Shown here piece after piece: positions 1 through 35,177 of a DNA stretch of 35,177 nt. Within the stretch, counting starts at the first letter, position 1. Every line of letters starts with the position of its first letter. The stretch lies in the IMG/VR virus record IMGVR_UViG_2690316321_000006. One strand, 5' to 3'. The notes under the pieces were generated by a model. The model saw nothing but the letters and a program-made list of their open reading frames with translations, was not told the origin of the DNA and ran no database searches. Source of the stretch: a virus (lineage: Duplodnaviria; Heunggongvirae; Uroviricota; Caudoviricetes). Both the position numbers and the translations under genes were made by a program.

Positions 1-516
1 ATGAAATTTAAAAAATGTCTTCTGCCTGTGGCAATGTTAGCGTCATTCACTCTGGCAGGATGCCAGTCAAATGCTGATGATCATGCCGCCGATGTTTATC
101 AAACCGATCAACTGAATACCAAACAAGAAACTAAAACCGTTAATATTATTTCCATTCTTCCCGCAAAAGTTGCCGTAGACAACGCCCAAAATAAACGGAA
201 CGCACAAGCCTTCGGCGCGCTTATTGGCGCTGTCGCTGGCGGTGTTATCGGCCACAACGTCGGGTCTGGCAGCAATTCCGGAACGACGGCAGGTGCAGTT
301 GGCGGCGGAGCTGTTGGCGCAGCAGCGGGTTCTATGGTGAATGATAAAACCTTAGTGGAAGGTGTTTCTTTAACATATAAGGAAGGCACCAAAGTGTATA
401 CCTCCACCCAGGTGGGTAAAGAGTGCCAGTTTACGACAGGTTTAGCCGTTGTTATTACCACGACGTATAACGAAACGCGTATTCAGCCAAATACCAAATG
501 TCCTGAAAAGAGCTAA
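1..516 (+). CDS. Outer-membrane lipoprotein with glycine-zipper segment (YcfJ / 17-kDa-antigen-like)
   Basis: ATG at 1; signal peptide with lipobox LAGC; Gly/Ala-rich zipper (GALIGAVAGGVIGHNVG); ordinary GC; probably host flank, possibly a moron. Confidence 0.6.
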   Translation: MKFKKCLLPVAMLASFTLAGCQSNADDHAADVYQTDQLNTKQETKTVNIISILPAKVAVDNAQNKRNAQAFGALIGAVAGGVIGHNVGSGSNSGTTAGAVGGGAVGAAAGSMVNDKTLVEGVSLTYKEGTKVYTSTQVGKECQFTTGLAVVITTTYNETRIQPNTKCPEKS

Positions 517-531: not shown

Positions 532-1071
532 ATGAAGAAAGTTTTTCTTTGCGCCATCTTAGCCTCCTTAAGCTATCCGGCTATCGCCTCATCATTGCAG
601 GATCAACTCTCGGCTGTCGCAGAAGCGGAACAGCAAGGTAAAAATGAAGAGCAAAGGCAGCATGACGAATGGGTCGCGGAGCGCAACAGGGAAATCCAGC
701 AAGAGAAGCAACGTCGCGCAAATGCCCAGGCCGCCGCTAACAAAAGAGCGGCAACGGCAGCAGCAAATAAGAAAGCTCGTCAGGATAAACTAGACGCCGA
801 AGCCACTGCGGACAAAAAACGCGATCAAAGTTATGAAGATGAGCTACGCAGCTTAGAGATTCAGAAACAAAAACTGGCGCTGGCGAAAGAAGAAGCCCGC
901 GTTAAGCGAGAAAACGAATTTATCGATCAGGAACTGAAGCACAAAGCTGCGCAAACCGATGTGGTGCAATCTGAAGCTGACGCAAACAGAAATATGACTG
1001 AAGGCGGTCGCGATCTGATGAAAAGCGTGGGTAAAGCAGAAGAGAACAAATCGGACAGCTGGTTTAACTAA
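532..1071 (+). CDS. Secreted charged coiled-coil protein of unknown function
   Basis: ATG at 532 preceded by AGGAGG at 522-527; N-terminal signal peptide (AIASS); K/E/Q/A-rich body; followed by a rho-independent terminator. Confidence 0.55.
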   Translation: MKKVFLCAILASLSYPAIASSLQDQLSAVAEAEQQGKNEEQRQHDEWVAERNREIQQEKQRRANAQAAANKRAATAAANKKARQDKLDAEATADKKRDQSYEDELRSLEIQKQKLALAKEEARVKRENEFIDQELKHKAAQTDVVQSEADANRNMTEGGRDLMKSVGKAEENKSDSWFN

Positions 1072-1142: not shown

Positions 1143-1407
1143 CATTCATAGTGCAGAGTCAAATCATTCCCACTCGATTATATACAATCACTTTAATTAC
1201 TTGATTTTAATAGTCTAAATTGAGACACGCTACCCAATTTACCGTCAATTTTACCGTCCACAGAAGAAAGTAACCCAACGGCAACGAGTTATCACTACCG
1301 GGCATATTAACATGCTGGCCAGTGGAAGAATGGGAAGTAAATAGCTGGCAAACATAATGACTGCTTTTTAACCTCTCTATATATACCAAAGTCCGTGGGG
1401 GCTTCGG

Positions 1408-1690
1408 AAAAAGGTAACCTTAGTAACCTGCAACGAAAAATCAAAATAACTTAATGAATAAAAAGGATTTTTCAAAAACAGAGAAAGGTAATCTTTTGGT
1501 AACCAAAGAGTAATCAGGTTACCTTTTATAATAGTGATCTCTTCTAATTGGTAACGTTATGATTTATATGAAAATATAAAACAGGTTACCTTTTGGGTTA
1601 CCTCAGATTACCTTTTAGGGGTAACTAAATTTCTCTTTTATAAACAATAAAATAAGCATTATTTTTACTGCCAATTACTGAGGTTACCTT
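1408..1690. repeat. Cluster of GGTTACC-TTTT / AAAA-GGTAACC motifs in AT-rich non-coding DNA (candidate integrase arm-type sites or attL region)
   Basis: Copies of GGT(T/A)ACC flanked by T4/A4 at about 1413, 1422, 1488, 1498, 1517, 1584, 1596, 1607, 1619 and 1682, in both orientations; no long ORF. Confidence 0.4.
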
Positions 1691-1877
1691 TTCCCGACAG
1701 GCGATCCAAAAATACCAAAAGGATCGTGGCATTGTCCTCCCGATCGTCTCTGCCGCATACACAGGGCGCATAAATCCGCATGATTCTGCTGCACCTGCAA
1801 CCCGACCACGCCCTCCCGTTATGGCCCGCTCCGACGCTTACGCACCAGTGCAAAAAAAGCGATCTATTTACTGCGCA

Positions 1878-1896
1878 GGCGTGGCGGGGTCACAAC
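1878..1896. other. cos: Putative cos site (cohesive-end sequence) of the P2-like phage
   Basis: GGCGTGGCGGGGTCACAAC resembles the 19-nt cohesive ends recalled for P2 (GGCGAGGCGGGGAAAGCAC) and 186; lies just beyond the end of the portal gene, as in P2. Confidence 0.4.
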
Positions 1897-1942: not shown

Positions 1943-1964
1943 AAAAAAACCCGCAGGAAGCGGG
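1943..1964 (-). terminator. Rho-independent terminator downstream of Q (minus strand)
   Basis: Minus strand reads cccgc-ttcct-gcggg followed by a T7 run (plus-strand A-tract 1943-1949). Confidence 0.5.
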
Positions 1965-2011
1965 CTGAATGGCGCGTGGTGGCGCTGATGGGGAGCTGGT
2001 CGTTGTTGGGG

Positions 2012-2992
2012 TTACTCTGAATCGTCGTCGGCAAGGCGGTACTTTTTGAAGCGAATAACCTCCAGCCCCAGCCAGTCGTTCAGTTCTTTAAAGCGTTCCT
2101 GCAGCGGCTCGATCTCATTGCAGTTGAATACCTTCGCCGCTTTGATAGCGTCGCCGAAGCCACCGGCGTTACTCGGTACCACGCCCATGAGCGCGGGCGG
2201 TACCCGGTGCGCGGCTAACTGGTCGTCACGGCTGACGCTCTTGATATCGGAGAAGTTATCTTTCGCCGCCACCTCGCCAATCGGGATCACCTTTACGCTG
2301 TCCGGTTTGCCGTTCGGCAGATACATCAGCAGATTGCGGAAGTTGCCGGGGCCACGGCTGTTCGCCAGCGCCTCCTGTAACGCCCCAATATCCGCCTCGT
2401 TATGGGCAGGGTCGCTCAGGTAGAGGATGAAACCGGCATGACTGCCGTTCTTGTAGTAGCGACGGCGAAACAGCGTGGCGGAGTTATCCAGCCATGCCGC
2501 GTTCAGCGCAGAGAGGTATTCAGGCAGGCCGTAGATTTCCTGATTGATATCCGGCTCCAGCAGGTGGCCGATACTGCCCGACGCAAACTCATGATCCACT
2601 TTACCGGGCTGAACAAAGAAATAGCTGTCCAGCGCCTTGCCGCGCCGGACATACTTCGCCAGCGCAGGCACCAGCGTTAACGGCTGGCCCAGCCGGTTAT
2701 CCTGCCGCTCCAGATAGGCATTACCGAACACCAGATAGTCCAGCGCAAGGCGGCTGAACGCCTGCCGGGTCAACAACGGATGAGGTATGAAGGTACCAAC
2801 CAGCACATTGCGCTTCACGCAGATCGGGCTGGTATGATGCGCCGAAGCGCGGAACGACAGCGCCAGCGAATTAAAATCCACCGGCGGCGCATACCATTTG
2901 CCAAAGTCTACGCACTCCAGATAGTTCAGTATTTCCCGCCTGTCCAGCAGGGCTTCGGGTTCACCGAAGGTGAAAGCCATTGCGTTATTCAT
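2012..2992 (-). CDS. Q: Portal protein (P2 gpQ-like)
   Basis: 326-aa ORF, ATG at 2992; position and orientation upstream of the terminase ATPase as in P2; stop/start overlap (ATGA) with P. Confidence 0.85.
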   Translation of the reverse strand: MNNAMAFTFGEPEALLDRREILNYLECVDFGKWYAPPVDFNSLALSFRASAHHTSPICVKRNVLVGTFIPHPLLTRQAFSRLALDYLVFGNAYLERQDNRLGQPLTLVPALAKYVRRGKALDSYFFVQPGKVDHEFASGSIGHLLEPDINQEIYGLPEYLSALNAAWLDNSATLFRRRYYKNGSHAGFILYLSDPAHNEADIGALQEALANSRGPGNFRNLLMYLPNGKPDSVKVIPIGEVAAKDNFSDIKSVSRDDQLAAHRVPPALMGVVPSNAGGFGDAIKAAKVFNCNEIEPLQERFKELNDWLGLEVIRFKKYRLADDDSE

Positions 2993-4773
2993 CCATACAC
3001 CTTAATTAAGCCCCGCCCGCTGTTCGCGCCGCCAGAGCTTTCCAGTGGTTCATTGATAATGGCGTGCATGCACGCCCATGCCAGATCCGCGTGGGAGACT
3101 TCTTCCGAACGGCTGGCCTCGAAGGTCACCTGACGCCCGGACGGGGTCAGGGTTTTGCGGATCGCCATAAATGCCTGCGCCAGATCCGTCCATCCAGCGT
3201 CAAACTCCAGTCGGTGTTTACGGACAACGTCCAGCGTTTTCAGCACCAGACGCTGTTTCACTTCCGGGGAATAAGAGAATGCCTGCACTGCCGGGAAGAA
3301 CTGTTTCACCAGTTGATGCACGCCGTGGCCGATACCGGTCACGTCAATGCCGATGTACGTCACGTTATAGCGCTCGGTAATTTTGCGGATATTCTCCGCC
3401 TGCGCCGCGAAGTCCATCCCGTGCCACTGGTGCTTTTCAATTACCCGAAACTTGCCGCCCTCAATGACCGGCGGCGCGACCACCACGCATCCGGCGCTGT
3501 CGCCGCTTAACGCCGGATCGTAGCCCACCCATACCGAGCGTTCGCCGAGCGGACGCAGGGCAAACGGCTTGTAGTCGTCCCAGACTTCCCAGCTATCGAC
3601 CATGCAACCCTGCAACATGCTGAGCGGGAATACCGATGCGGTATCGTCAATAAACTGGCACATAAACAGGTTGGCGAACTCTTCCGGCGAGTTCTCCAGC
3701 CTGAGTTGCTCAAGGTCGAACAGGTCATAACCCTGATTGATGGCATCCTCAACGGTGACGATTTGCCGCCACTGGCCGTCTTCACACAACCGCCCTGCCG
3801 ACAGCGCCCGATGGCTGATATCCAGTCGAATCTGTTCGCTCTTCGGCCTGCCCTTGTTGAACAGTTGCCCTGTCCAGAACTTATAGGCTTCATGGGTGAT
3901 GCTGGACGGCGTGGAGAAGTAGGTTTGCCGCCAGCGCTTCTGGCTGGCCATCCCCGCCGCGTTACGGCGCAGTTCCAGAAAGCGGTGTATCCAGAAGTAT
4001 TCATCCAGATACAGGTTGCCATGATAGGTCTGGGCGGTGCGGGCATTAGTGCCGAGAAAATACATCCGGCTATCATTATGCGGCAGGTGAATGACTTCGC
4101 CTTTCAGCTCAACATCCGCCTCACGAGCAAAATCGACAATGTACTGGCGGAACTGGTGCGCCTGCGCTTTGGAAGCAGAGAGAAAGATCTGGTTGCGCCC
4201 ACTTTCCACCGCATCCATAAACCCTTCCCGCCCAAAGAACATCGTCGCCCCAATCTGGCGCGACTTGTTGATATCGCGGATACGGTGTTCCAGTCCGGCG
4301 CGGTACCAGTGTTTCTGGTGCGGATACAGCCCGTCCAGAAATAGCTGTTTCAGCTTCTCCGCCTGCTCCTCGCTGATATGGTTGGTTTCCGGCTGTCTGC
4401 GCGGCCCGGCGTTACGCTTCGCAAGAGCAGGATTCAGGTCGACCTCATTGCCTCCCTGCTGATAGCGTTCAACCCTTGCCCCGCGCTCCATCTGCCGCCA
4501 GAGCAAATCGATCTCCTTAAAATCCTTCCCCTCTTTATTTTCCTTCACCGTGAGCTGGATCAGACGCGCCTCGGTCACCGCCGTCACCCGCTCCAGCGGG
4601 GCGGATTCATCCCAGCCGTCGCGCCGCTTCCAGCTATGCAGCGTGGTAACTTTCACCCCCAACAGTTCGGCGATCCGCGCGATGCGAAAACCCTGCCAGT
4701 ACAGATAGCGGGCTTTGCGGCGTGGATCTTCATCCTGAAGGGCAAGCAGATGTTTTTCGATGTCTGGCGGCAT
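2989..4773 (-). CDS. P: Terminase large (ATPase) subunit (P2 gpP-like)
   Basis: 594-aa ORF, ATG at 4773; N-terminus MPPDIEKHLLALQ... typical of P2-family terminase ATPase; divergent from O. Confidence 0.9.
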   Translation of the reverse strand: MPPDIEKHLLALQDEDPRRKARYLYWQGFRIARIAELLGVKVTTLHSWKRRDGWDESAPLERVTAVTEARLIQLTVKENKEGKDFKEIDLLWRQMERGARVERYQQGGNEVDLNPALAKRNAGPRRQPETNHISEEQAEKLKQLFLDGLYPHQKHWYRAGLEHRIRDINKSRQIGATMFFGREGFMDAVESGRNQIFLSASKAQAHQFRQYIVDFAREADVELKGEVIHLPHNDSRMYFLGTNARTAQTYHGNLYLDEYFWIHRFLELRRNAAGMASQKRWRQTYFSTPSSITHEAYKFWTGQLFNKGRPKSEQIRLDISHRALSAGRLCEDGQWRQIVTVEDAINQGYDLFDLEQLRLENSPEEFANLFMCQFIDDTASVFPLSMLQGCMVDSWEVWDDYKPFALRPLGERSVWVGYDPALSGDSAGCVVVAPPVIEGGKFRVIEKHQWHGMDFAAQAENIRKITERYNVTYIGIDVTGIGHGVHQLVKQFFPAVQAFSYSPEVKQRLVLKTLDVVRKHRLEFDAGWTDLAQAFMAIRKTLTPSGRQVTFEASRSEEVSHADLAWACMHAIINEPLESSGGANSGRGLIKVYG

Positions 4774-4928: not shown

Positions 4929-5756
4929 ATGGACAAAAAGCCAAAGAAAAAACTGCTCTCTAAATGGGTGCGTATCGCCGTAGAAGGCGCAACCTGCGAC
5001 AAGCGCACTATTGAACGCCAGTGGATCGAGCAAATGGCCGATACATACAGCCCAAAAGTGTACGGCGCGCGCATTAATCTGGAGCACCTGAAAGGCATCC
5101 TGCCGGACGGCCCGTTCCAGCGCTACGGCGACGTGGCGATGGTGAAGAAAGAAGAGATCGCCGAAGACGGCCCCCTGAAAGGCAAACTGGCGCTGCTGGC
5201 ACGTCTGGCCCCAACGGATTCATTGGTCGAAATGAACCGCAAAGGGCAGAAGGTTTATACCTCGGTGGAAGTCGATCCGAAATTTGCCGATACAGGCAAA
5301 GCCTATCTGGTCGGGCTGGCAGTCACCGACGATCCGGCCAGTCTCGGCACCGAAATGCTCTCCTTCTGCGCCAGCGCGCAGAGCAACCCGCTGGCGGCGC
5401 GTAAGCGCTCGCCGAAGAACATTTTCAGCGTGGCAGAAGAGATTGAACTGGAGTTTGAAGAAGTGGAGGAAAGCAGCGGCGAATCGCTGTTTACCCGCAT
5501 CAAGGCGCTGTTAAGTAAAAAGCAGAACCACGACGACCAGCAACGGGACGACGTGCATCTGGCGGTGGAGGAAGTAGCGACGTTCTGTAGCGAACAGGTC
5601 GACCAAATTCGCGCTGAGCTGTCTGAACTGCAAACGCAGCATCAGCAGCTACAGGCCGATTATTCCACGCTGAAAACTCAGCTTGCAAAGCAACCGGCCA
5701 CACCATCGCGCCAGCCTGCCACCGGTGGCAACACCGACCTGAAAACCGACTGTTAA
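4929..5756 (+). CDS. O: Capsid scaffolding protein (P2 gpO-like)
   Basis: 275-aa ORF, ATG at 4929; first gene of the rightward head operon; acidic coiled-coil C-terminus. Confidence 0.85.
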   Translation: MDKKPKKKLLSKWVRIAVEGATCDKRTIERQWIEQMADTYSPKVYGARINLEHLKGILPDGPFQRYGDVAMVKKEEIAEDGPLKGKLALLARLAPTDSLVEMNRKGQKVYTSVEVDPKFADTGKAYLVGLAVTDDPASLGTEMLSFCASAQSNPLAARKRSPKNIFSVAEEIELEFEEVEESSGESLFTRIKALLSKKQNHDDQQRDDVHLAVEEVATFCSEQVDQIRAELSELQTQHQQLQADYSTLKTQLAKQPATPSRQPATGGNTDLKTDC

Positions 5757-8430: not shown

Positions 8431-9084
8431 TTAGTCAAGAGCCGACCAATACTCAGACTCTAACCAAGAGCACAGCATTTCAACATTTCTGATAGCTTCG
8501 AATATTTTCTCTTTAGTCGGGGATATTGTAGGTGGGAATAACCACGATTTTTCTTCCTGTTCGGAAGCCAAAAGTAGCTCACACTCCTGAATAAAGTATG
8601 GGCGAGGATATTTTTCCAAGTCATTTTTTGAGTGAGAAATATTAATTGAGGTAAGTTCCTCAGGATGCTGGACACGATTTCTCACCAAGGGAATTTGTTC
8701 AATTATTTCCAAATTTGCAGGACATTTTGCCATTTCCAACTCAATTTTGTTGAAAATTTCACGATAGCCATTAAACCAACCCTTCTTGAAATTTATATCA
8801 GATTTCACGCTATGATATCCTAAGCGATCTACCCACGCCTTCAGGTACAACTGAAGAGAAGACGAAAGCATCGATAATGCATGGTGCCCACAGGTTTCTA
8901 ATCCCGACTTTGCATCTAACCATTCATCTAAAAAAGCTGGTTCATCACTCTCACCATACGGCTGAATATAAGGTTCCACTTCATTCTCAATATCATTCAT
9001 GATGTTAACAAATGGTGCAGCAGCCGTTTCATAGAAATAAGTAACGAATCTTGTGCGCTCTTTAAGAAAAAATTCAATATCCAC
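8431..9084 (-). CDS. Hypothetical 217-aa accessory protein with R-x4-H motif (possible HEPN-like toxin or effector)
   Basis: AT-rich; the track start at 9102 is TTG, the preferred start is GTG at 9084 directly after AGGAGG; contains LVRNRVQHPEEL (R-x4-H); lies downstream of an RHH gene on the same strand. Confidence 0.5.
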   Translation of the reverse strand: MDIEFFLKERTRFVTYFYETAAAPFVNIMNDIENEVEPYIQPYGESDEPAFLDEWLDAKSGLETCGHHALSMLSSSLQLYLKAWVDRLGYHSVKSDINFKKGWFNGYREIFNKIELEMAKCPANLEIIEQIPLVRNRVQHPEELTSINISHSKNDLEKYPRPYFIQECELLLASEQEEKSWLFPPTISPTKEKIFEAIRNVEMLCSWLESEYWSALD

Positions 9085-9185
9085 AACACCTCCTACACAC
9101 AATGTTTAAGTTAATCAGTGCATATCGACTAATCTGGGCTGAACAAATAATCCTAACTTCTTAGCGCTGCTTGATATCTCCGTAA

Positions 9186-9356
9186 TTATCCTTTGGGTTC
9201 AATACCTCGTGACTGAAGTTCCTTACGCAAAACGCGTTTTATCCATGTTGCGAGAGAGGTATCTCCATCTTTACGAGCCTGTTCTTCAAGCTGCTTTCTA
9301 AATTCATGAGCAAGACGAAGTTGGTACTGATCTGTTTTAGCCTTTTCACTTGACAT
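9186..9356 (-). CDS. Ribbon-helix-helix (Arc/CopG-like) DNA-binding protein; putative antitoxin or autoregulator (56 aa, absent from the ORF track)
   Basis: Minus-strand ATG at 9356 to TAA at 9186; translation MSSEKAKTDQYQLRLAHEFRKQLEEQARKDGDTSLATWIKRVLRKELQSRGIEPKG has the beta-strand then two-helix RHH pattern; palindromic GTAATTAC operators overlap its start. Confidence 0.55.
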   Translation of the reverse strand: MSSEKAKTDQYQLRLAHEFRKQLEEQARKDGDTSLATWIKRVLRKELQSRGIEPKG

Positions 9357-9408
9357 TGTAATTACAAAATCCTTAGAATGATGTAGTTGTAATTACATCG
9401 CAATTACG
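9357..9408. promoter_or_regulatory. Operator/promoter region with repeated palindrome TGTAATTACA
   Basis: TGTAATTACA at 9357-9366 and 9388-9397 (31 bp apart) plus a degenerate copy GCAATTACG at 9400-9408; sits between divergent RHH gene and the 9498 ORF. Confidence 0.5.
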
Positions 9409-13109: not shown

Positions 13110-13373
13110 ATGAATACGTTAAGCGCCAAACATAAAAAAACCTTACAAGCTGTTTTTTCTACGCCAACACCTGTCACGCTGGAATGGCGAAAAATAGAAG
13201 CCTTATTTATTGCTTTGGGGGCTATTGCTACGGAAGGAAACGGTTCCCGCGTCAGGTTTGAAATTAATCAGGTTGTGGCTTCATTTCATCGTCCACACCC
13301 GGAAAAAGAAGCGAAAGCCTATCAGGTTCGCGATGCCAGAACATTCCTTGAAGCTGTAGGGGTAACACCATGA
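13110..13373 (+). CDS. hicA: HicA-family mRNA-interferase toxin
   Basis: 87 aa; conserved ...RFEINQVVASFHRPHPEKE... region typical of HicA; followed by overlapping HicB. Confidence 0.7.
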   Translation: MNTLSAKHKKTLQAVFSTPTPVTLEWRKIEALFIALGAIATEGNGSRVRFEINQVVASFHRPHPEKEAKAYQVRDARTFLEAVGVTP

Positions 13374-13705
13374 TGAATACCATGACATATAGAGGCTATG
13401 CCGCAAAAATTGAATACAGCGATGAAGATCAATGCATTGTTGGTCACGTTGCAGGCATTCGGGATGTCATTGGCTTTCATGCCGATAATGTTGCCGATCT
13501 GCGTAAAGCGTTTGAAGAGGCGGTAGACGACTATCTGGCTTACTGCGAGGAACGGGGCCGGGAGCCGTTGCGTCCGGCCAGCGGAAAAATCAGCCTGCGT
13601 ATTCCACCTGAAATTCACTCTGCCATTAACGTTGCGGCAGAAGTCTCCGGTAAAAGCGTTAACCAGTGGATTAACGATACACTGATGAAGGCTGCGCACG
13701 GTTAA
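13370..13705 (+). CDS. hicB: HicB-family antitoxin
   Basis: 111 aa; ATGA overlap with hicA; HicB-like N-terminal domain plus C-terminal RHH-like segment (ISLRIPPEIHSAINVAAEVSGKSVNQWINDTL). Confidence 0.75.
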   Translation: MMNTMTYRGYAAKIEYSDEDQCIVGHVAGIRDVIGFHADNVADLRKAFEEAVDDYLAYCEERGREPLRPASGKISLRIPPEIHSAINVAAEVSGKSVNQWINDTLMKAAHG

Positions 13706-18833: not shown

Positions 18834-19288
18834 GTCAGGTTTACGCGGCGTTCTACCGTGGCCGGGCTGAACGTTTTTTCAGCCTTGCCCGGCTCTCCGA
18901 CTGGTTGACGCGACAGGTCACGCGCGGCCCTTACTCTCACTGCGAACTGGTCGAATGCCAGCCGGATGGCCTGTTTATCTGTTACTCATCATCGGTACGG
19001 GATAAAGGCGTGCGCAGCAAACGAATGCCGCTGCCGATTGAGAAATGGGATTTACTCCCGATCAACGCCGATCCGCTGGCACTGGAAACCTTTTTCCGTC
19101 AGCACGACGATAAAGGTTACGACTGGCTGGGAGCCATAGGTTTTGTGTTACTCAGTCAGGGCAAACAGGAGCGCCTGTTTTGCAGCGAGTTCTGCGCCGA
19201 ATTTCTGCATCTGCGTGATAGCTGGCGTTATTCACCTAATCTGCTGTATGCGCTGATCTGCAGTCGATCTGGAAAATTGACAATATGA
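18830..19288 (+). CDS. Hypothetical accessory protein (152 aa) with His/Cys motifs, translationally coupled to G and dam
   Basis: ATG at 18830 overlapping G stop (ATGA); motifs YSHCELV and LFCSEFCAEF weakly suggest a permuted papain-like (NlpC/P60 or LRAT-like) fold; occupies the P2 Z/fun position. Confidence 0.5.
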   Translation: MSQVYAAFYRGRAERFFSLARLSDWLTRQVTRGPYSHCELVECQPDGLFICYSSSVRDKGVRSKRMPLPIEKWDLLPINADPLALETFFRQHDDKGYDWLGAIGFVLLSQGKQERLFCSEFCAEFLHLRDSWRYSPNLLYALICSRSGKLTI

Positions 19289-20043
19289 ATACGTTACCCA
19301 TTATTCCGTGGATCGGCGGTAAGCGCAGGCTGGCAAAACACATTCTGCCGCTGTTTCCCAAACACCGTTGCTACGTTGAACCGTTCTGCGGGGCGGCGGC
19401 GTTGTTCTTTATGAAACAGCCCGCACAGGCCGAGGTGCTGAATGATATCAACGGCGACGTTACCAACCTCTACCGCGTACTCCAGCACCATTTAGAAGAG
19501 TTTGTCCGCCAGTTTAAATGGTCGCTGGTCAGCCGCGAAATGTACCGCTGGCTCCAGATCACCCCGGAAGAAACGCTGACCGATATCCAGCGCGCGGCGC
19601 GCTTCTACTACCTGCAAAAGCTGGCATTCGGCGGCAAAGTGGAAAGTCGCACATTCGGTACCGCCACCACCTCACCGCCGCGCCTGAACCTGCTGCGTAT
19701 GGAAGAGGATTTATCCGCCGCCCATCTGCGGCTGGCGCGCGTCTGTATTGAAAATCTGGACTGGGCCGACTGTATTCGCCGCTATGACCGCCCGCATACC
19801 CTATTCTACTGCGACCCTCCATACTGGAAAACCGAAGGCTACGGCGTGCCATTTGGCCTTGAGCAGTACCAGCGAATGGCAGAGCTGGCGCGCACCATGC
19901 AGGGCCGGATGATTATCTCGGTTAATGACATCCCGGAAATGCGCGATATCTTCCACGGCCTGACATTCTCAACGGTAGGGATTCGCTATACCGTAGGCAG
20001 AAAGCCAGCCAGCGCCACATCAGAACTGATTATCCTGAATTAA
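19285..20043 (+). CDS. dam: DNA N6-adenine methyltransferase, Dam family (orphan, no cognate restriction enzyme seen)
   Basis: 252 aa; DPPY catalytic motif (YCDPPYW) and Dam-like N-terminus (IPWIGGKRRL, EPFCGAAALFF); ATGA overlap with the upstream ORF. Confidence 0.85.
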   Translation: MNTLPIIPWIGGKRRLAKHILPLFPKHRCYVEPFCGAAALFFMKQPAQAEVLNDINGDVTNLYRVLQHHLEEFVRQFKWSLVSREMYRWLQITPEETLTDIQRAARFYYLQKLAFGGKVESRTFGTATTSPPRLNLLRMEEDLSAAHLRLARVCIENLDWADCIRRYDRPHTLFYCDPPYWKTEGYGVPFGLEQYQRMAELARTMQGRMIISVNDIPEMRDIFHGLTFSTVGIRYTVGRKPASATSELIILN

Positions 20044-25144: not shown

Positions 25145-25573
25145 ATGATGATGGTACTGGGGCTATTCGTCTTCAGCCTGAAAACCCTGCCCTATCAGGA
25201 TATGCAGCACGCCGTAGCGTGGCGGCATCCTGCCAGTTCCCGCGTGGGGCTACGTCCGGCCAGCCAGTTTATCGGCGTGGGTGACGAAACCATTACGCTA
25301 AACGGCGTGCTGTTGCCGGAACTGACCGGCGGGCGATTTACTCTGTTTTTCCTGCGTAAGATGGCCGATCAGGGGATGGCGTGGCCGCTGATTGAAGGCA
25401 CCGGCTCGCTGCATGGCTGGTTTGTGATTGAGAGTCTGAACGTCACACGGAGCGTCTTTTTTCGCGACGGTGCGGCCCGGCGCATTGAGTTTACGCTGGC
25501 GTTAAAACGTGTCGATCCGCCGAAGCTGGGTGGCTTGCTGGGCGACATCATCACGATGGTCGACGGACTATGA
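25145..25573 (+). CDS. U: Tail protein U (P2 gpU-like)
   Basis: ATG at 25145 with AAGGAGG upstream; the track's longer ORF from 25037 overlaps T and is rejected. Confidence 0.8.
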   Translation: MMMVLGLFVFSLKTLPYQDMQHAVAWRHPASSRVGLRPASQFIGVGDETITLNGVLLPELTGGRFTLFFLRKMADQGMAWPLIEGTGSLHGWFVIESLNVTRSVFFRDGAARRIEFTLALKRVDPPKLGGLLGDIITMVDGL

Positions 25574-26676
25574 CGATGTTAAACGCACTCTTAAACGCCC
25601 AGCCGCAACCGGAGTACAGCGTGGTGCTGAACGGTAAGGACATTACGCGGAATCTGGACAACCGCTTAATCAGCCTGCGTATCACCGACAACCGGGGCTT
25701 TGAGGCCGACGAACTGCAGCTCGAACTGGACGACAGCGACGGCCTGCTGGCGTTTCCGGCAAAGGGCGAAAAGCTAACGGTTTCTCTGGGCTGGAAGGGT
25801 GACGGCGTGATGCACCAGAATGTCTTCACAGTGGACGAACTGGAGCACAGCGGCGCACCGGACGTACTCAGCCTCCGCGCCCGCAGCGCCGATTTCCGCG
25901 ATTCGCTGAACGTTAAACGGGAACAGAGCTACCATGATGTGACGCTGGGCGCGATTGTGCAAACCGTGGCGGCACGTCATAAGCTGGAATCAACCGTCAG
26001 CGGCGAGCTGGCTGGGATCGCCATTGAGCACGTTGACCAGACTAACGAGTCTGATGCGTCCTTCCTAACCCGGCTGGCGCAAATGCACGGCGCTATCGCC
26101 TGCGTGAAAAATGATGCTCTGCTGCTGATGCCGACAGGTTCCGGTAAAAGCGCCAGCGGCAAGCCGCTGCCGGTCGCAACCATTAACCGCGAGGACGGCG
26201 ACAGCCACCGGTTCAGCATCGCGGACAGGGAAGCCTATACCGGCGTAACGGCCTACTGGCTGGATACGCGGCAGGCTAAAAAGCAGTCAACTGACGTGAA
26301 GCGCAAGACACGGAAAAACCTTCCGCAAACGCAACCAACAGAATCGCCGACGTCAGACACCTCATTCAACGCCGATAACGTGATGGTCGGCGAAGAGGGA
26401 AATATCAAGGTGCTGCGCCACACCTATGCCAACAAAAATAACGCCTACAGAGCGGCAGAAAGCGCGTGGGAGCTATTACAGCGAGGCGCGGCAACGTTCA
26501 GCCTGAATCTTGCGCGTGGACGGCCCGATTTGTTCCCGGAATTGCCGGTGCCGGTGCAGGTGAAGGGGTTTAAGGCTGAGATTGATGGCACCGCGTGGGT
26601 GATTACGCGGTGCGTGCATACGTTGGATGGCGGTACTGGTTATGTCACCGCATTAGAAATGGAATTAAGTTTATAG
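25570..26676 (+). CDS. D: Tail protein D (P2 gpD-like)
   Basis: 368 aa; ATGA overlap with U; last late gene as in P2. Confidence 0.85.
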   Translation: MTMLNALLNAQPQPEYSVVLNGKDITRNLDNRLISLRITDNRGFEADELQLELDDSDGLLAFPAKGEKLTVSLGWKGDGVMHQNVFTVDELEHSGAPDVLSLRARSADFRDSLNVKREQSYHDVTLGAIVQTVAARHKLESTVSGELAGIAIEHVDQTNESDASFLTRLAQMHGAIACVKNDALLLMPTGSGKSASGKPLPVATINREDGDSHRFSIADREAYTGVTAYWLDTRQAKKQSTDVKRKTRKNLPQTQPTESPTSDTSFNADNVMVGEEGNIKVLRHTYANKNNAYRAAESAWELLQRGAATFSLNLARGRPDLFPELPVPVQVKGFKAEIDGTAWVITRCVHTLDGGTGYVTALEMELSL

Positions 26677-27927
26677 TAATCCTAAATGAACCATAATAGC
26701 CATTAAGATCATTCCACCACCTAAGGCTGTCGGAATCCAGCATAAGCATTGAAAGAAAAGAAGGTAACGATTTAACATGACCTGATTTTTGTCTAAATTA
26801 TCCTTTGCATTGCATACTAATTTTTTCAAATCTTCTGTATAACCTACAGATTTTTTCACTAATGGGGAAAATATAATATCTTTAGCATCACAAATCATCC
26901 TAAACTGTGTGTATTGACTTCTTACAATAAAAAACATAATTATCGACGTGAGCAATACACCTAAAAAAACCACTAACATTTCCGGCAGGGTATTTAATTT
27001 TATCATGCCAAAAGTAGCAACCAAAGAAACAGGAATACCTAAAAGCTTAGCTATCATGTCTGACATTATTTTTGAAAAACGCTCAGCTAAATTAGCTTCT
27101 GCCTCTGCCACTTCCTTTCTTACTTTATGAAATGAAAAACCACTAAGATATACACCGAGGTTATTATGGTATAGTTTTAGAAATTCATCCCACTCACAGA
27201 ATAAAAAATGAAACTGTTTCTTTACATCGATTGATTCAAGAAAATCGACCACCGTATTAATGAAAATCCCTTTTCGCTCAAAATAATTATCATCCGTTAT
27301 AGCTTTTTTTTCATCAGAAAAAGATTCGATGATTTTTAAATCCTTAATACCTGTTAAAAGAAGTGAATAATCAACATTAGTTTCAATAATTAAAGGTAAT
27401 GACTTAGCATTAGTATTTTTCAAGAAAACTAACTTATGGCATACATCATCACTTTTACTATTGCTGTAGTGTGCAACTTTTGATAGACATAAAATAAAAT
27501 CACAAAGATTCTTTAAAACAGATAGTTCTGGTATTTTTGCTAATCCCTCAACCATTCCTTCATTAAAATAAAAATCTTCCTCAACCAAGTAAAAAGACTT
27601 TCTTAAAATACCTCTATTTAACATCGGAGACTTTTGAATTAGATCTTTAATATCGATAAAAAATGACTCACTGGCTCCAGTTGATATAGAGATTGTCAGT
27701 GTTATTGATGTTCCTTTAGCGGGAAGGCTATCATCAACATCTATATCCACATCATCAATGACAATCTCTTCAATTTCTCCCCACGCGGTATGAGGTTGCA
27801 AAGAAACTAAGAGTTCATATATATGAGCATCATAAGAAATAGTTGCTGAAAAACGATTATTAATAGCATCAAATTTAGGACGCCCTACATATCTGAAAAG
27901 CTCAACAACCGTTTCAAAACATGACAT
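26671..27927 (-). CDS. Accessory protein with large soluble N-terminal domain and 2-3 C-terminal transmembrane helices (candidate membrane effector); third gene of AT-rich operon
   Basis: Preferred ATG at 27927 (track start 27936 is TTG); strongly AT-rich; hydrophobic segments LVVFLGVLLTSIIMFFIV and LLFFQCLCWIPTALGGGMILMAIMVHLGLL at the C-terminus; its stop overlaps the D stop convergently by 6 bp. Confidence 0.6.
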   Translation of the reverse strand: MSCFETVVELFRYVGRPKFDAINNRFSATISYDAHIYELLVSLQPHTAWGEIEEIVIDDVDIDVDDSLPAKGTSITLTISISTGASESFFIDIKDLIQKSPMLNRGILRKSFYLVEEDFYFNEGMVEGLAKIPELSVLKNLCDFILCLSKVAHYSNSKSDDVCHKLVFLKNTNAKSLPLIIETNVDYSLLLTGIKDLKIIESFSDEKKAITDDNYFERKGIFINTVVDFLESIDVKKQFHFLFCEWDEFLKLYHNNLGVYLSGFSFHKVRKEVAEAEANLAERFSKIMSDMIAKLLGIPVSLVATFGMIKLNTLPEMLVVFLGVLLTSIIMFFIVRSQYTQFRMICDAKDIIFSPLVKKSVGYTEDLKKLVCNAKDNLDKNQVMLNRYLLFFQCLCWIPTALGGGMILMAIMVHLGLL

Positions 27928-27985
27928 ATTAAGCAACCTTATTTTTCGCTATTTCTTTCTTTTATTAACTCATCAAGCAATTGAG

Positions 27986-29086
27986 CTATTTCACTTTTTT
28001 CTCAGGAGTAATCCGAGTAAAAGTTAAATGTCCAGTTTTCTTATTATAGCATATCTCATTATCAAGAGTATTGCCTAGTAAACTAGATTTAAACTCAAAA
28101 TTAACATTATCACTTGTATATTTAATATTTCTGTTTTTCTTAACTACTGATTTGCTTACCCTAAATTCCACAGGCACACGAATACTTTCACTATTCAAAT
28201 GAGCATATAATTCTTCTGACAATTTATCTTTAATGTCATCTTCTAAATTAACCATATGCTTCGCTGCCATCTCACTAACAACAGAAAGCTTAGCTGAAAT
28301 GTTATTCTCAGAACAATCGAATAAATACTCAATAATTTCATTTTTAAATTTACGGGCATTATCCTTTAATTCTTGATGATTTCTGAAGAAGTTAAAAGAT
28401 TCATTAATTAAATTACTCGTAGCTTTAGTTGATGTATTACCTTTATCACAACCTAAGGCAGTAATGAAATACCCTGAAGTTGTCTGGTTAGAACTGGGAC
28501 TAACAAAACTTAAATAATTAACATCCTGTCTTTCATTCTCATCAGCGGAAATATATTTATCATACAAATCATAGTTTATTCGTGCCGCCTGATTTAGTTT
28601 TGCCAGATCAAGATGCTCTAACTCCTTTGGTTCTAATTTATCACTAATAACTATACCTTCCTTTTGCTTAATCATTGCAATAAGAAAGTAACGCACGGAT
28701 TTACTGATATAATCAGCAAAAAGAAGTAATCCTCCTGATGCAGCAGGTCGATCCTTTGCCTCAATATATAACTGATGCATAACATTTTTTGATAATCCTA
28801 TAAACAATTCATCGTCTAACTTCTTGGATGTATCATTCCGATATTTATCAAATGCCGCTGGAAAAGGCCCCCTACGTGTTTCATCTAAATTAAATATACC
28901 ATAATGCGAGCTATTAGATTTTTTACCATACAATGCGGCTATACTGGACACTAGTTTAATTACGATTTCATTATTTCGGTCAAGAACCGTATCACGGCGA
29001 CTATATGGTTTTGAGTGATCGAAATCTTTATGTTGCTCTTTTATCAACCTATGAACAACCACGCACCCTAATGAAATATCAGACAT
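27986..29086 (-). CDS. NdpA/YejK-like nucleoid-associated-protein-family member (accessory); second gene of AT-rich operon
   Basis: 366 aa; collinear similarity to E. coli YejK as recalled from memory (MSDISLGCVVVHRLIKEQ vs MSLDINQIALHQLIKRDEQ; ASGGLLLFADY vs ADGGFVLFCHY; YLSFV vs YLTFL); RBS TGAGG upstream. Confidence 0.65.
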   Translation of the reverse strand: MSDISLGCVVVHRLIKEQHKDFDHSKPYSRRDTVLDRNNEIVIKLVSSIAALYGKKSNSSHYGIFNLDETRRGPFPAAFDKYRNDTSKKLDDELFIGLSKNVMHQLYIEAKDRPAASGGLLLFADYISKSVRYFLIAMIKQKEGIVISDKLEPKELEHLDLAKLNQAARINYDLYDKYISADENERQDVNYLSFVSPSSNQTTSGYFITALGCDKGNTSTKATSNLINESFNFFRNHQELKDNARKFKNEIIEYLFDCSENNISAKLSVVSEMAAKHMVNLEDDIKDKLSEELYAHLNSESIRVPVEFRVSKSVVKKNRNIKYTSDNVNFEFKSSLLGNTLDNEICYNKKTGHLTFTRITPEKKVK

Positions 29087-29100
29087 ATAACCTCACAATC

Positions 29101-29673
29101 CTATGGTAAATAAAAATCTTTCGCTTTATTTTCTAAATCAGTCCATCTACTGCTAATATTCTTTTCCTTACAAACAAGAAAAGCCTGATACCCTAAAAAC
29201 TCTTTCGTTTTCTTTAAATTATCTTCAGTAACATGACTCTTTTCTTCATTGTTGTTTTTCCATCCACAGAAATATATTCTGTCTGCTTCTTCAACATCCC
29301 TGACATGCACAGCAATATCAGTATATTTTGCCTTATTCTTAACAGTAACCGATGGAGGGATTTTCCCATCAAAATCTTCAAAAAACTTACTTGTTCTAAA
29401 TGGATTGGCAGGGTCATATTTCAAACCTAGAGCCTTGCATAATTCTTTATAAGTCTCACTTCCCAGATTAGGATTTATGACGAATCCCTTCTCGACTTTT
29501 AGACGAAAGCAAAGATTAGCGCCTAATGCTCCGAAAAGAAGCTCAAACGGTTTTCCATCAATAAAGAAAAATACATCAAAATGTAAATTATTGTGTCTGT
29601 ATGGGAATTTAACCCTATCCAATTTTTGCTCTGTCATGTTCCTGTAAAGAGCAACCAGATTATTCAACTTCAT
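29101..29673 (-). CDS. Hypothetical 190-aa protein; first gene of AT-rich accessory operon
   Basis: ATG at 29673 with GGAGG 5 nt upstream; AT-rich; no recognisable motif; 14-bp gap to the next gene. Confidence 0.55.
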   Translation of the reverse strand: MKLNNLVALYRNMTEQKLDRVKFPYRHNNLHFDVFFFIDGKPFELLFGALGANLCFRLKVEKGFVINPNLGSETYKELCKALGLKYDPANPFRTSKFFEDFDGKIPPSVTVKNKAKYTDIAVHVRDVEEADRIYFCGWKNNNEEKSHVTEDNLKKTKEFLGYQAFLVCKEKNISSRWTDLENKAKDFYLP

Positions 29674-29713: not shown

Positions 29714-30052
29714 TTATCCCTTAGCTGCTTTCCCTACTCCCGGTTGCGCAAGCGCAGCGCTAACCGTGTCAAGGGTGGACTGGTGTTCTGGCGTAGCAGA
29801 ACGATAGTTTTCCACCAACACACTCTCTTTACTGGACAACGTAACTACAGGCGTGCGGTTGCCTGTTAGAACATACAGAACATCAACTCCCGCTGCCGCT
29901 ATGCCAGCAAGATAGTCACTGTCCGGCTTACGCAACCCATTCTCATAGTTGCTTTGTGCGTTTTTCTTCACGCCCCCAAGTTGTCCAAAGCCGTCTTGAT
30001 CAAGTCCAAGTCGGATACGTTCTTCCTTCAAACGGATGCCAAATTCTTTCAT
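29714..30052 (-). CDS. HTH (XRE/CI-like) transcriptional repressor, putative immunity repressor
   Basis: 112 aa; N-terminal helix-turn-helix; divergent from the small regulator / ogr / primase operon, as for P2 C versus cox. Confidence 0.7.
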   Translation of the reverse strand: MKEFGIRLKEERIRLGLDQDGFGQLGGVKKNAQSNYENGLRKPDSDYLAGIAAAGVDVLYVLTGNRTPVVTLSSKESVLVENYRSATPEHQSTLDTVSAALAQPGVGKAAKG

Positions 30053-30132
30053 TTGGATATAATTACCATTGACAATTCACTCAATTGAGGGAATTATAGA
30101 TTGTGTAATGTTAATAACCACAATATACCACC
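30053..30132. promoter_or_regulatory. Divergent promoter/operator region of the lysis-lysogeny switch
   Basis: 80-bp AT-rich intergenic region between divergent repressor and early operon; TTGACA at 30071-30076; dyad aattc...gaatt around 30077-30096. Confidence 0.45.
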
Positions 30133-30339
30133 ATGAAAACAAATGAGAACGTCTTACGCTCACGAGCACCCCGCGGGGTGATGTCGAACAAACCGGTGGC
30201 AATGCGTCTGCTCCCCGCTGAAATCGCGGAATTGGAAGCATTAGCGCTGGATCAGAACCGTTCGATGTCCAGCATGGCAAGAATCATTTTTTTGAACGGC
30301 ATCACATTTTTTCGTCAGTCCGTTAACGAAAAGCGTTAA
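30133..30339 (+). CDS. Small regulatory protein in the Cox/Apl position (possible RHH-like)
   Basis: 68 aa; first gene of the rightward early operon; segment MRLLPAEIAELEALALDQNRSMSSMARI resembles RHH/MobC-type N-termini; weak. Confidence 0.4.
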   Translation: MKTNENVLRSRAPRGVMSNKPVAMRLLPAEIAELEALALDQNRSMSSMARIIFLNGITFFRQSVNEKR

Positions 30340-33358: not shown

Positions 33359-33736
33359 ATGAACGAAATATTTAAGGCTCTGGCAACGCAAGAAACCCAA
33401 CGACAAAGACTTTGCGTAACGCCAGAGGAATACCGCCTTGCTGTCAATACCCTTGTCGACGTTGCTCTCACAGAAACCACCGGCGGACACGCGGCTGCGC
33501 AGGTACTGCTTTCTGCATGGAATGGCTACGTGTGGCAACTGGATATTCCCGACCTCTGTTATCTGGACTATGACCTGCTGGAACAGGCGCTGATCGTTAT
33601 CCGGGGGCGGATAATGTTGATGAAAGAGCCGCAGGAGGTGATCCCGGAGGGGAATGCGGTGATGAAGCGGATTGCAGCGCAGTGGCAACACCTGAACGCC
33701 GAACGGCATGGGGAAAACAATGAAAATTGCCATTAG
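33359..33736 (+). CDS. Hypothetical protein (125 aa)
   Basis: ATG at 33359 with AAGGAAA upstream; between primase and alpA; overlaps the alpA start. Confidence 0.45.
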   Translation: MNEIFKALATQETQRQRLCVTPEEYRLAVNTLVDVALTETTGGHAAAQVLLSAWNGYVWQLDIPDLCYLDYDLLEQALIVIRGRIMLMKEPQEVIPEGNAVMKRIAAQWQHLNAERHGENNENCH

Positions 33737-33974
33737 AAAAAACGTGCTTTTACAAATGGTGCCACTCTCTGAAAGTACGATTTATGCGTTGGAGCAAAAA
33801 GGCCTGTTTCCCAAACGTTTTGCGCTAACGAAGCGCGCCGTCGCGTGGGACAAAGAGGAAGTGGAACGCTGGCTCAAGACTCGGCAGGAAAATAACCATC
33901 ACCATATTGACAGTGCGGTACAGAAGAATCTGGCCAAAGCACCAAAGCGCTCTGGTACCAAGATCCCCGCATAG
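33720..33974 (+). CDS. alpA: AlpA-family (MerR-like, excisionase-type) transcriptional regulator
   Basis: Motif LSESTIYALEQKGLFPKRFALTKRAVAWDKEEVERWL matches the AlpA pattern (STIYRL..G.FP.P..LG.R.V.W...V..W); preferred start ATG 33720 (alternative 33708). Confidence 0.75.
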   Translation: MKIAIRKNVLLQMVPLSESTIYALEQKGLFPKRFALTKRAVAWDKEEVERWLKTRQENNHHHIDSAVQKNLAKAPKRSGTKIPA

Positions 33975-33977: not shown

Positions 33978-35177
33978 TTACGGGCGGTATTGCTTGATCC
34001 ACCCATCAACCATATCCGCCCACTGCTGCAACATATCACGGCGCTGCTCTGCGTATTCCGCTTTGTTATAAACGGCTCTGACGCTTCTTTCCTCGTGCGC
34101 GAGGCATTTTTCTATCCAGTCGGAATTAAACCCCGCCTCATGCAATAACGTCGAGGCCGTTCGGCGCATATCGTGAACGGAAAACGACGCCAGCCTGATC
34201 CCCCGTTCCTGCGCCTGCTTAACCGTAAGATTAATGACCCGGTTTAAGGTCGCCGCCGACATGGTCTTATGCGACGACTGATTGCATGAAGGCAAAACCC
34301 AATCACTGCTTCCTGCGCACATTTTCAGGGCAATCAGAATGTCCTGTGCCTGCCGGGACAGATAAACATTATGATCCCGTGATCCCTTCATCCGGCTGGC
34401 GTCAATCGTCCAAAGGCAGGCATTAAAATTAACCTCACCCCACGGCGCGTTCAGCAGTTCACTTTTACGCACCATCGTTAATAAAACCAATTTAATGGCC
34501 AGCTTGATGGTGGGTAATGTACCCGTTTGTTCAAGCTGATTGAAAAACCAGCCTATCTCCTCTGGCTTGAGCGCCCTGTCGCGCGCTTCGAATGTCGCAA
34601 TTGAAGCCGGTAAAACCTCTTCGGCAGGATTGGGGTAATAGTCGCCGTGAAGCGCGGCGAACTTAAATACCGCACTAACGATATTGCGAACCTGAATCGC
34701 CGTCGCTGGCGCACCACGCGCTTTTATCTTGTCGCAATACTCACGTAGGAGAGAGGGGGTTATCTCTGACAGCAGCTTGCGCCCCCATACTGGGGTGATG
34801 TCTCTGTCGATAATGCTTTGCTTCATCGCCCTTGTGCTGTCCGCCAGCCGGGTGTGTTTCATGTAGCTGACGGTAAAATCGTGGAGTGTCTTTTCTTCTT
34901 TTCGCTTTGTTTTACCGTCACGCTTCTCTCCAGCGGGCGATATTCCTGCATTTACGCGTTTTTTAGCTTCCACTAATTTTTCGCGCGCCTGCGCCAGAGA
35001 AATACCGTCACCATAGCGACCAATCGTTAACGTTTCACGACGACCATTGATTCGATAGTCATAGCGAAACGTCACCAATCCCTTGGGAGATACGGTTACA
35101 TACAGCCCATCACGGTCTGCAACTTTATAAAGTTTTTCCCGCGCTTTGAGGTTTTTCAGCTTGGTATCGGTCAGCAT
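33978..35177 (-). CDS. int: Tyrosine integrase, P4/CP4-57 family (arm-binding N-terminal domain plus catalytic domain)
   Basis: 399-aa ORF whose ATG is the last three bases of the window; N-terminus MLTDTKLKNLKA...DGLYVTVSPKG typical of P4-type integrases; C-terminal R...H..R...Y catalytic region; attachment site expected just right of the window. Confidence 0.9.
   Translation of the reverse strand: MLTDTKLKNLKAREKLYKVADRDGLYVTVSPKGLVTFRYDYRINGRRETLTIGRYGDGISLAQAREKLVEAKKRVNAGISPAGEKRDGKTKRKEEKTLHDFTVSYMKHTRLADSTRAMKQSIIDRDITPVWGRKLLSEITPSLLREYCDKIKARGAPATAIQVRNIVSAVFKFAALHGDYYPNPAEEVLPASIATFEARDRALKPEEIGWFFNQLEQTGTLPTIKLAIKLVLLTMVRKSELLNAPWGEVNFNACLWTIDASRMKGSRDHNVYLSRQAQDILIALKMCAGSSDWVLPSCNQSSHKTMSAATLNRVINLTVKQAQERGIRLASFSVHDMRRTASTLLHEAGFNSDWIEKCLAHEERSVRAVYNKAEYAEQRRDMLQQWADMVDGWIKQYRP

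Follow-up and report, generated by a model that had tools for sequence, protein, structure and literature searches.

The question raised by this locus is what a dense block of short repeats is doing in AT-rich non-coding DNA, between a terminated pair of host genes and the cos site of a prophage. The window, i.e. the whole analysed stretch of 35,177 bp, starts with two lipoprotein genes, yfgH and yfgI, which the first-pass annotation had suspected of being host DNA, and rightly so, since megablast recovers both from 5,422 of the 5,426 complete E. coli genomes; what follows them is a P2-like prophage of the phiCTX type. That annotation was equally correct about the density of the cluster, its position between these genes and a P2-type cos, and the presence in the integrase of an arm-binding N-terminal domain (Arm-DNA-bind_3, found with Pfam). 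Its proposal for what the repeats do is taken up below, together with the other possible explanations.

The features on which the argument depends are collected in the table. Beyond the large terminase gene lie the scaffold, capsid, small terminase and tail genes up to gpD (25570-26676), followed by a cargo cluster, while the rightward early operon encodes an Arc-like protein, an Ogr-like protein, an 884-aa Toprim protein, DUF7673 and an AlpA-like excisionase. The integrase gene is read in the direction away from attR, a site beyond the end of the window. In the circular form of the genome the order is thus primase, DUF7673, excisionase, int, attP, block and cos, with cos 185 bp to the right of the repeats; the cos of the window was compared with those of P2 and Smp131 as given in PMC3931495.

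Table. Features of the window relevant to the repeat block (position 1 is the first nucleotide of the window).
Feature	Position	Strand	Remarks	Basis
yfgH	1-516	+	host gene, outside the element	megablast to E. coli genomes, annotated
yfgI	532-1071	+	host gene, outside the element	megablast to E. coli genomes, annotated
attL core, 16-mer CAAATCATTCCCACTC	1160-1175		overlaps the guaA stop codon and last codons	
Iteron block, 13 RTTACY sites	1404-1697		left half mostly in GGTAAC orientation, right half mostly GTTACC	
Site cluster A (1413, 1422)	1409-1429	-	columns invariant in five-phage alignment	
AT-rich spacer 1	1430-1482		sequence varies between phages	
Site cluster B (1487-, 1498-, 1509-, 1518+)	1483-1527			
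AT-rich spacer 2	1528-1580		lone site 1550(-)	
Site cluster C (direct 1585+, 1597+, 1607+; inverted 1620-)	1581-1626			
Site cluster D (1674+, 1683+), then TTTTCCCG	1674-1692	+		
cos, P2-type cohesive-end sequence GGCGTGGCGGGGTCACAAC	1878-1896	+		pattern match; blastn to phiCTX-like cos regions
Terminator-like hairpin	1948-1966	-	end of portal-terminase operon	
Portal	2012-2992	-		
Large terminase	2989-4773	-	N-terminal HTH domain Terminase_5	
HTH repressor	29714-30052	-		
Primase-helicase, 884 aa	30695-33349	+	proposed initiator reading the block	
DUF7673	33359-33736		small gene accompanying the primase	
AlpA/Vis-like excisionase candidate	33708-33974	+		phrog_66, phrog_2790
Tyrosine integrase	33978-35177	-	arm-binding N-terminal domain (Arm-DNA-bind_3)	Pfam PF13356, PF22022, PF00589

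The clustering is far beyond what chance would produce. Exact GGTWACC occurs eight times in the window, where 2.5 copies are expected and none of 100 shuffles reached eight, and six of these copies fall at 1413-1688. The longer motif AGGTTACCTTTT is found exactly at 1409(-), 1516(+), 1583(+) and 1681(+), and in degenerate form at 1483(-), 1486(+), 1580(-) and 1605(+), exact and degenerate searches together giving nine matches against 1.9 expected. The shorter core RTTACY is present 13 times in 1400-1700, compared with an expectation of 1.1 and a maximum of six in 5,000 first-order Markov simulations of the same 301 bp. GC content is 29-30% at 1401-1700 as against 57-64% further rightward.

The sites are arranged in a regular manner. 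All of the five leftmost are on the minus strand and five of the six rightmost on the plus strand, which gives two opposed sets around AT-rich DNA. The outer 36-nt arms of the block (1404-1439 and 1662-1697) form an inverted pair with 78% complementarity and bear the conserved flanks CGGAAAAA...TTTTCCCG. On its minus strand, spacer 2 contains an IHF-like sequence, AAATCATAACGTTA, which on direct reading differs by one mismatch from WATCAANNNNTTR and is located where related blocks have consensus IHF sites. The spacing within cluster C, TTACC-N7-TTACC-N5-TTACC, is kept in phiCTX and in RSY1.

When the region 1176-2011 was compared by blastn with a phage collection, only the cos regions of phiCTX-like phages were matched, and the homology of the block emerged solely from its repeat architecture. 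The phiCTX record (NC_003278) annotates, between attP and cosR, a "region3 containing R3 repeats" along with two IHF sites, for which it gives no function. This region contains approximately 12 sites of the ATTACCTTT type in both orientations, four direct copies of which are spaced by 66/22/75 bp, compared with 67/22/76 bp in the window. Site number, order and orientation agree between the two, both have AT-rich spacers with IHF-type sites, and the order int, attP, block, about 180 bp, cos is the same, whereas the site consensus ((A)ATTACCTTTC in phiCTX, AGGTTACCTTTT in the window) and the type of integrase, its orientation and the att site, which is unrelated, are different. Judged by its sites, the block of the window is the counterpart of the phiCTX R3 repeats: it is a TTACC-type array of conserved order, orientation and spacing, it occupies the attP-cos interval, and the genome encodes an orf37-type primase.

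The same array was found in Ralstonia phage RSY1, between attP (39,892-39,906) and the cos core (485-539; coordinates from the part of PMC5694545 dealing with these sites), in Stenotrophomonas phage Smp131, about 190 bp from cos and 2.3 kb from an attP that has been mapped experimentally (as described in the attP passages of PMC3931495), in Halomonas phage 4908 and in the uncultured phage 2F_1. In an alignment of five phages, from E. coli, Ralstonia, Pseudomonas, Halomonas and Stenotrophomonas, the sites are invariant and the spacers variable, so the array is conserved across five bacterial genera. Scanning IMG/VR for TTACC-N7-TTACC-N5-TTACC yielded approximately 61 true blocks in viral contigs, belonging to phiCTX-type phages and to HP1-like Pseudomonas phages. 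This conservation is independent of the integration machinery: the integrases and att sites of phiCTX, RSY1, Smp131, Halomonas 4908 and Mae-JY29 are unrelated, and Mae-JY29 carries the block even though it has a "recombinase family protein" in place of an integrase.

What the block does accompany is the primase. Exactly one block was present in each of the ten complete primase-type genomes examined (the window and CEC15 prophages counted as one, phiCTX, RSY1, Smp131, Halomonas 4908, 2F_1, ev239, PfPro, phi3 and Mae-JY29), and the primase is the sole early protein common to all block-bearing phages. In none of four genomes with a replicase of the nicking type (ev129, ESSI-2, P2 and HP1) was a block found. 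The comparison of ev239 with ev129 and ESSI-2 is particularly close, these phages having the same gene order, a shared cos-proximal sequence and large terminases that are 73-74% identical; ev129 and ESSI-2 encode a P2 A-type nicking protein in place of the primase.

The ten complete genomes fall into five types with respect to site sequence: TTACC or GTTAC in the window, CEC15, phiCTX, RSY1, Smp131, Halomonas 4908 and 2F_1, CRTCACA in ev239, CTGACAG in PfPro, GGAATAT/GGTACA in Mae-JY29 and TGTTCCGG in phi3. Many blocks are framed by CGGAAAA...TTTTCCG. The phi3 block, with about 16 copies of GGAACA, is located directly 3' of the primase gene and approximately 7.7 kb from cos, which makes it plain that the element can be separated from cos. 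Four HP1-like contigs (L156, L157, L160 and L161) have sites of the GTTACA type (L156, L160 among them) or the GTCACA type (L157 among them), with the CGGAAAA...TTTTCCG flanks kept. The block starts about 70-240 bp 3' of the primase gene in phi3, L156, L157 and L160, and 1 kb 3' of it in L161, where one ORF is inserted between the two; in all five the block is to the right of the primase gene and int is on the opposite side, and in L160 and L161 the portal and terminase genes are found 3-4 kb beyond the block. For the window, in circular form, the corresponding distance is about 2.3 kb, with int and attP in between. Contigs encoding the close homologues P0005 and P0003 are in prophage form and end at the integrase end or run into host DNA, which puts the block out of their range. 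The 10-kb record MT836451 is a high-GC fragment and uninformative. A search of a plasmid collection returned four primase matches, of which none is an obvious independent replicon, two being phage-sized (37-48 kb) Pseudomonas records with 48.6-48.7% identity, like phiCTX; the plasmids of this collection thus provide no separate check on whether the block acts as an origin.

The 884-aa protein consists of a Zn ribbon, a Toprim/DnaG-type primase, a P-loop helicase with a fold like that of SaPI Rep and Cch, and a C-terminal helical and winged-helix-like domain. It is 48.6-49.8% identical to phiCTX orf37, belongs to phrog_1139, and is a member of a primase-helicase family with at least 1,925 homologues at E<1e-20, across which four N-terminal cysteines and the acidic Toprim residues are invariant and the Walker A and B motifs are conserved. 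For its AlphaFold model (mean pLDDT 84.5), the best fold matches in the PDB were the SCCmec Cch helicase (2e-14) and then the SaPIbov1 Rep initiator-helicase (1.6e-10), followed by DnaG RNA-polymerase domains and PriRep1. A sequence-profile search of the PDB with the same protein gave nothing significant, so that the likeness to Rep and Cch is one of fold level only. Going by this model, the protein is most likely a DnaG-type primase fused to a Rep/Cch-like self-loading initiator helicase.

If this protein reads the sites, some part of it might be expected to change when the sites do. A predicted helix at aa 838-849 (KRVLKTSRTHKF) has the pattern K[TE]S[RK]xxKF in all five of the TTACC/GTTAC-type phages compared, and the corresponding residues are KNGNERRF in ev239, KDCRAHHC in PfPro, PRSETYPF in phi3, SGSKSRKF in Mae-JY29, KAGRM[HR]KF in L156 and L160, and KTARARRF in L157; the helix thus differs in every phage of another site type, in a sample that is small, non-independent and uncorrected for relatedness. 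That helix and site type appear to change together is suggestive, and overall similarity does not follow the same line, ev239 being 52.6% identical to the window protein as compared with 49.8% for phiCTX, yet differing from it in both helix and site type. A covariation scan along the primase, in which identity within the TTACC type was compared with identity to other types in windows of 40 columns, revealed no clear specificity segment.

Taken together, these observations indicate that the block at 1404-1697 is probably the replication origin, of the iteron type, of a phiCTX-type P2-like phage; that the primase-helicase binds its sites, and that replication starts within it, is what we infer from comparison of the sequences. 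According to the mechanism that we propose, phages of the phiCTX type would have swapped the rolling-circle system of the P2 A protein for a single 884-aa fusion protein, whose C-terminal winged-helix-like domain would recognise the approximately 13 hexamer sites with their GGTTACC core. These sites form two opposed sets around AT-rich spacers with IHF-like sites; binding would bend and melt the AT-rich DNA, and the loading of helicase rings would be bidirectional, in the manner reported for the origins of SaPI Rep. Somewhat less firmly, we lean towards regarding the block as one member of an unrecognised and widespread class of phage origins, in which a modular iteron cassette (CGGAAAA...TTTTCCG flanks, opposed hexamer sets and AT-rich spacers with IHF-like sites) would be read by the DnaG-primase/Rep-Cch-like self-loading helicase of P2-like and HP1-like phages of Proteobacteria, with at least six site types, a fixed architecture and, in most cases, a place beside cos.

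The sites could instead be bound by another protein, perhaps a small early one that has been passed on along with the primase, or constitute a replication enhancer similar to crr of P4. P4 needs this second iteron region in addition to ori, and small uncharacterised genes, such as that for DUF7673, do accompany the primase. Such an arrangement nevertheless seems to us rather unlikely, since there is only one iteron cluster per genome and the primase is the one early protein that all of the block-bearing phages have in common; DUF7673 itself was detected by tblastn only in Halomonas 4908, and RSY1 has no such gene after its primase.

A role linked to packaging is the main rival to the origin, because the block adjoins cos in most lineages. 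It would then be an accessory element of cos comparable to cosB of lambda, containing sites for terminase or IHF that position terminase at the cleavage site. In nine of the ten complete primase-type genomes no more than about 1 kb separates the block from cos, the block being on the side of the right genome end, and the gap is similar in several of them (176 bp for phiCTX, 180 bp for Halomonas 4908 and 185 bp for the window, with about 170 bp for 2F_1 and about 190-215 bp for Smp131 and RSY1); IHF-like sites are present, as in lambda cosB, where R sites and the IHF site I1 stand beside the cleavage site, and the large terminase has an N-terminal HTH domain. We consider this role improbable all the same. 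The cos 20-mer GGCGGGAGGGGGATAAGTGC is common to phi3, to PfPro with its CTGACAG block and to Pseudomonas contigs with a TTACC block, so the same cos can be accompanied by TTACC sites, by CTGACAG sites or by no adjoining block, and site sequence does not vary with the DNA-binding subunit of terminase. In phi3 the vicinity of cos is free of the block, which is found beside the primase gene instead, ev129 and ESSI-2 lack it in spite of the cos-proximal sequence that they share with ev239, in P2 and HP1 the space next to cos amounts to just 150-250 bp and is free of repeats, and in PfPro an ORF lies between block and cos. TTACC blocks are, furthermore, associated with both phiCTX-type and HP1-type packaging modules, in which gpM is 23-27% and the N-terminus of gpP about 23% identical; the gpM/gpP comparison as such gives no clear answer, since neither module is alike in ev239 and phi3. 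P4 is packaged by the P2 terminase by means of a short shared cos region only. The block is also much larger than lambda cosB, with 13 sites over 290 bp, and unlike an accessory of cos it is missing from relatives with homologous cos and terminase and can be far from cos, as in phi3.

The first-pass annotation had favoured a third explanation, in which the repeats are arm-type sites of attL, bound by the N-terminal domain of the P4-type integrase when the intasome is built. There is a likeness to the attP arms of lambda and P4: on the phage side of the junction, within about 520 bp of the core, AT-rich DNA contains short repeats, and the integrase has an arm-binding domain. The location of the core speaks against it. 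More than 5,400 prophage-free E. coli genomes match the window only up to 1175-1178, where guaA follows (megablast), and the right junction, which lies beyond the window, could be read from a 97%-identical prophage in E. coli CEC15, where CAAATCATTCCCACTC recurs at the end of guaA next to int, with a spacer of 224 bp between int and guaA. As this 16-mer is present both at 1160-1175 and at the guaA end by int, the phage integrates in the last codons of guaA. The left boundary of the prophage is therefore close to the block, as had been supposed, but not at it: the first repeat (1409) is 233 bp to the right of the core, and the last ends at 1692. A core located elsewhere had been listed by the annotation itself as counting against its proposal. 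Nor do the repeats recur at the other end, the int-proximal arm of the CEC15 prophage having no copy of GGTTACC-T4.

A better candidate for the arm-type sites, going by its distribution, is TTTACCGTC. Two direct copies on the plus strand (1238-1246 and 1250-1258), 63-83 bp from the core, would be the sites on the P' arm (1238-1258). Further copies are located upstream of int in CEC15, at 5386(+) and 5412(-) of the record L001, accompanied at 5348 by one with a single mismatch, and the 5' portion of int itself holds an inverted pair (34869(-) and 34911(+) in the window). Its presence on both arms near the core is the layout expected of arm-type sites. The closest phage relatives of the window integrase, at 60-62% identity, are those of epsilon15-like podophages, and an epsilon15-like prophage in E. 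coli 1446 occupies the same guaA core; the P' arm of this prophage, about 110 bp from the core to the first gene, contains TATACCGTCA, which is similar to TTTACCGTC, and no GGTTACC repeats. With the block also conserved alongside unrelated integrases and att sites, 2.3 kb away from the proven attP in Smp131 (attP passages of PMC3931495), and across the primase gene from int in phi3 and the HP1-like contigs, it differs from attP arms in its distance from the core, in having one arm empty, in showing no link to integrase type and in being separable from attP. As far as sequence comparison goes, the arm-type reading is refuted, and we give it hardly any credence. The fallback offered at the time, binding sites for some regulator, came closer insofar as a protein other than the integrase is concerned, though not in the form of a repressor or Cox operator array, which is unlikely since no copies occur at the early promoter region (switch region 30052-30133), and the repressors differ among phages with TTACC blocks. 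An RNA element or a small ORF can be dismissed, a search of the block against Rfam having given no match and a search for promoter-like sites in it none, and its only ORFs being short, overlapping ones of 41-62 aa.

One immediate consequence is that the map of the prophage is corrected, with the junction at the 3' end of guaA (1160-1175) and TTTACCGTC as the likely arm sites. Another is that a testable candidate origin becomes available for the large group of P2-like phages without nicking by an A protein, including phiCTX, the Ralstonia RSY1/RSA1 group, Smp131 and many prophages. Of these, phiCTX is a toxin-converting phage whose int-attP region has been used in integration vectors for Pseudomonas. 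Should the block indeed be an origin, a cassette of approximately 300 bp and one gene would amount to a minimal replicon with swappable specificity, and the variants of site and protein that occur together in nature would be a series on which DNA recognition by self-loading helicases could be studied. Why the block is so near to cos in most lineages would still have to be explained under this reading; a cassette in that place might link the initiation of replication with the site of packaging. Our literature search, which did not extend to the original phiCTX papers, found no report of a function for the phiCTX repeats or of an origin in such phages, and the passages of the Smp131 (PMC3931495) and RSY1 (PMC5694545) papers that concern cos, attP, origin, repeats and primase make no mention of the block.

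Known systems offer two close parallels to an origin of this kind. Within the world of P2 there is P4, in which a single multifunctional primase-helicase, alpha, with a C-terminal origin-binding domain, acts on octamer-like iterons present in both orientations. The combination of one primase-helicase with short iterons in both orientations is the same here. The alpha protein is, however, of a different family, with a helicase of the D5/SF3 type, and no match of the alpha type was obtained for the window protein in Pfam, PHROG or fold searches; P4 moreover has two separated iteron regions, ori and crr, as opposed to the single cluster per genome in the present phages.

A close fit is offered by the staphylococcal SaPI Rep/PriRep systems and the related SCCmec Cch. 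SaPI Reps are self-loading initiator-helicases in which a C-terminal winged helix reads 6-12 penta- or hexanucleotide iterons, these being located immediately 3' of rep, where they flank an AT-rich centre in opposite directions, and in SaPI5 primase and Rep are fused (PMC9371898). In both cases short hexamer-like iterons, 6-12 or more in number, form two opposed sets in AT-rich DNA, the initiator helicase has its DNA-reading domain at the C-terminus and is sometimes fused to a primase, and elements that are otherwise related have come to differ in the sequence of their iterons; in phi3, L156, L157 and L160 even the place of the block, immediately 3' of the initiator gene, is the same. Differences are that the block of the window is about 2.3 kb from the gene and beside cos, that the primase part of its protein is of the DnaG/Toprim type, that the hosts are Gram-negative and the element a P2-like phage, and that there are three AT-rich spacers rather than one centre. 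The best reading is thus that an element already visible as the R3 repeats of phiCTX belongs among the iteron origins of self-loading initiator helicases, and is not an origin of a new kind.

The window prophage carries several accessory genes and repeat features in addition to its core phage genes, and these are collected in the table below. The segment 8431-9405 resembles a cargo (moron) cassette that controls its own expression and has been inserted amid head and lysis genes, and the corresponding region of CEC15, an E. coli strain with a 97%-identical prophage, encodes a RelE/ParE toxin-antitoxin pair instead of the 223-aa ORF cassette. Between gpD and the repressor lies a variable cargo slot, possibly a site for defence genes. 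In the window it holds a 421-aa protein (phrog_5023) that matches no Pfam family, together with a nucleoid-associated protein of the NA37 type and DUF6037; in the CEC15 prophage the same slot is occupied by NA37 and a 'GTP pyrophosphokinase'.

Accessory features and candidate sites of the window prophage
Feature	Window position	Strand	Location or remark
Palindrome-like TGTAATTACA / GCAATTAC, 3 copies	9345-9405		directly upstream of small minus-strand ORF
Small ORF	~9160-9357	-	downstream of TGTAATTACA / GCAATTAC copies
223-aa ORF	~8431-9102	-	after small ORF; no Pfam match
HicB-family antitoxin-like gene	13370-13705	+	between tail-completion and baseplate genes
D12-class adenine methyltransferase gene	19285-20043	+	directly 3' of tail-fibre genes, ahead of tail sheath gene
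Cargo slot	26671-29673	-	between gpD and repressor
TTTACCGTC inverted pair	34869-34877; 34911-34919	-; +	5' coding part of integrase gene

TTTACCGTC is the candidate for the integrase arm-type site. Its inverted pair within the integrase gene is kept in CEC15, and it may constitute a further Int-binding or autoregulatory site, since only about 0.3 copies of an exact 9-mer are expected per whole window.

Some of the public phage records used for comparison have peculiarities of their own. The terminal CTGTCTCTTATACACATCT... found at the ends of the ESSI2_ev239 (L003 29118-29203) and ESSI2_ev129 (L128 30880-30927) records is untrimmed Nextera adapter in deposited genomes. In Smp131 (L005 25406-28091), the annotated primase CDS lacks the conserved C-terminus of the primase-helicase family; a frameshift or sequencing error in the record is suggested because the tblastn match resumes in a second piece, which extends to L005 28091. 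At the start of the phi3 record (L006 1-2756), a non-coding stretch of approximately 1 kb precedes a gene for a reverse transcriptase that adjoins int, which has the look of a retroelement or group II intron sitting at the att end.

A single cos 20-mer, GGCGGGAGGGGGATAAGTGC, is found in L019, L030, L031, L060, L104, L116, L129 (PfPro) and L006 (phi3), all of them Pseudomonas HP1-like phages. Replication and packaging modules thus reassort freely, since among the phages with this one 20-mer some carry a TTACC block, PfPro carries a CTGACAG block, and phi3 has none near cos.

The integration module, in turn, appears to be common to phages of unrelated types (P2-like and epsilon15-like), because the closest phage relatives of the window integrase, with 60-62% identity, are encoded by epsilon15-like phages. 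In E. coli strain 1446, the 16-bp guaA core into which the P2-like window prophage is integrated is likewise occupied by an epsilon15-like podophage prophage (L139 5150-5300).
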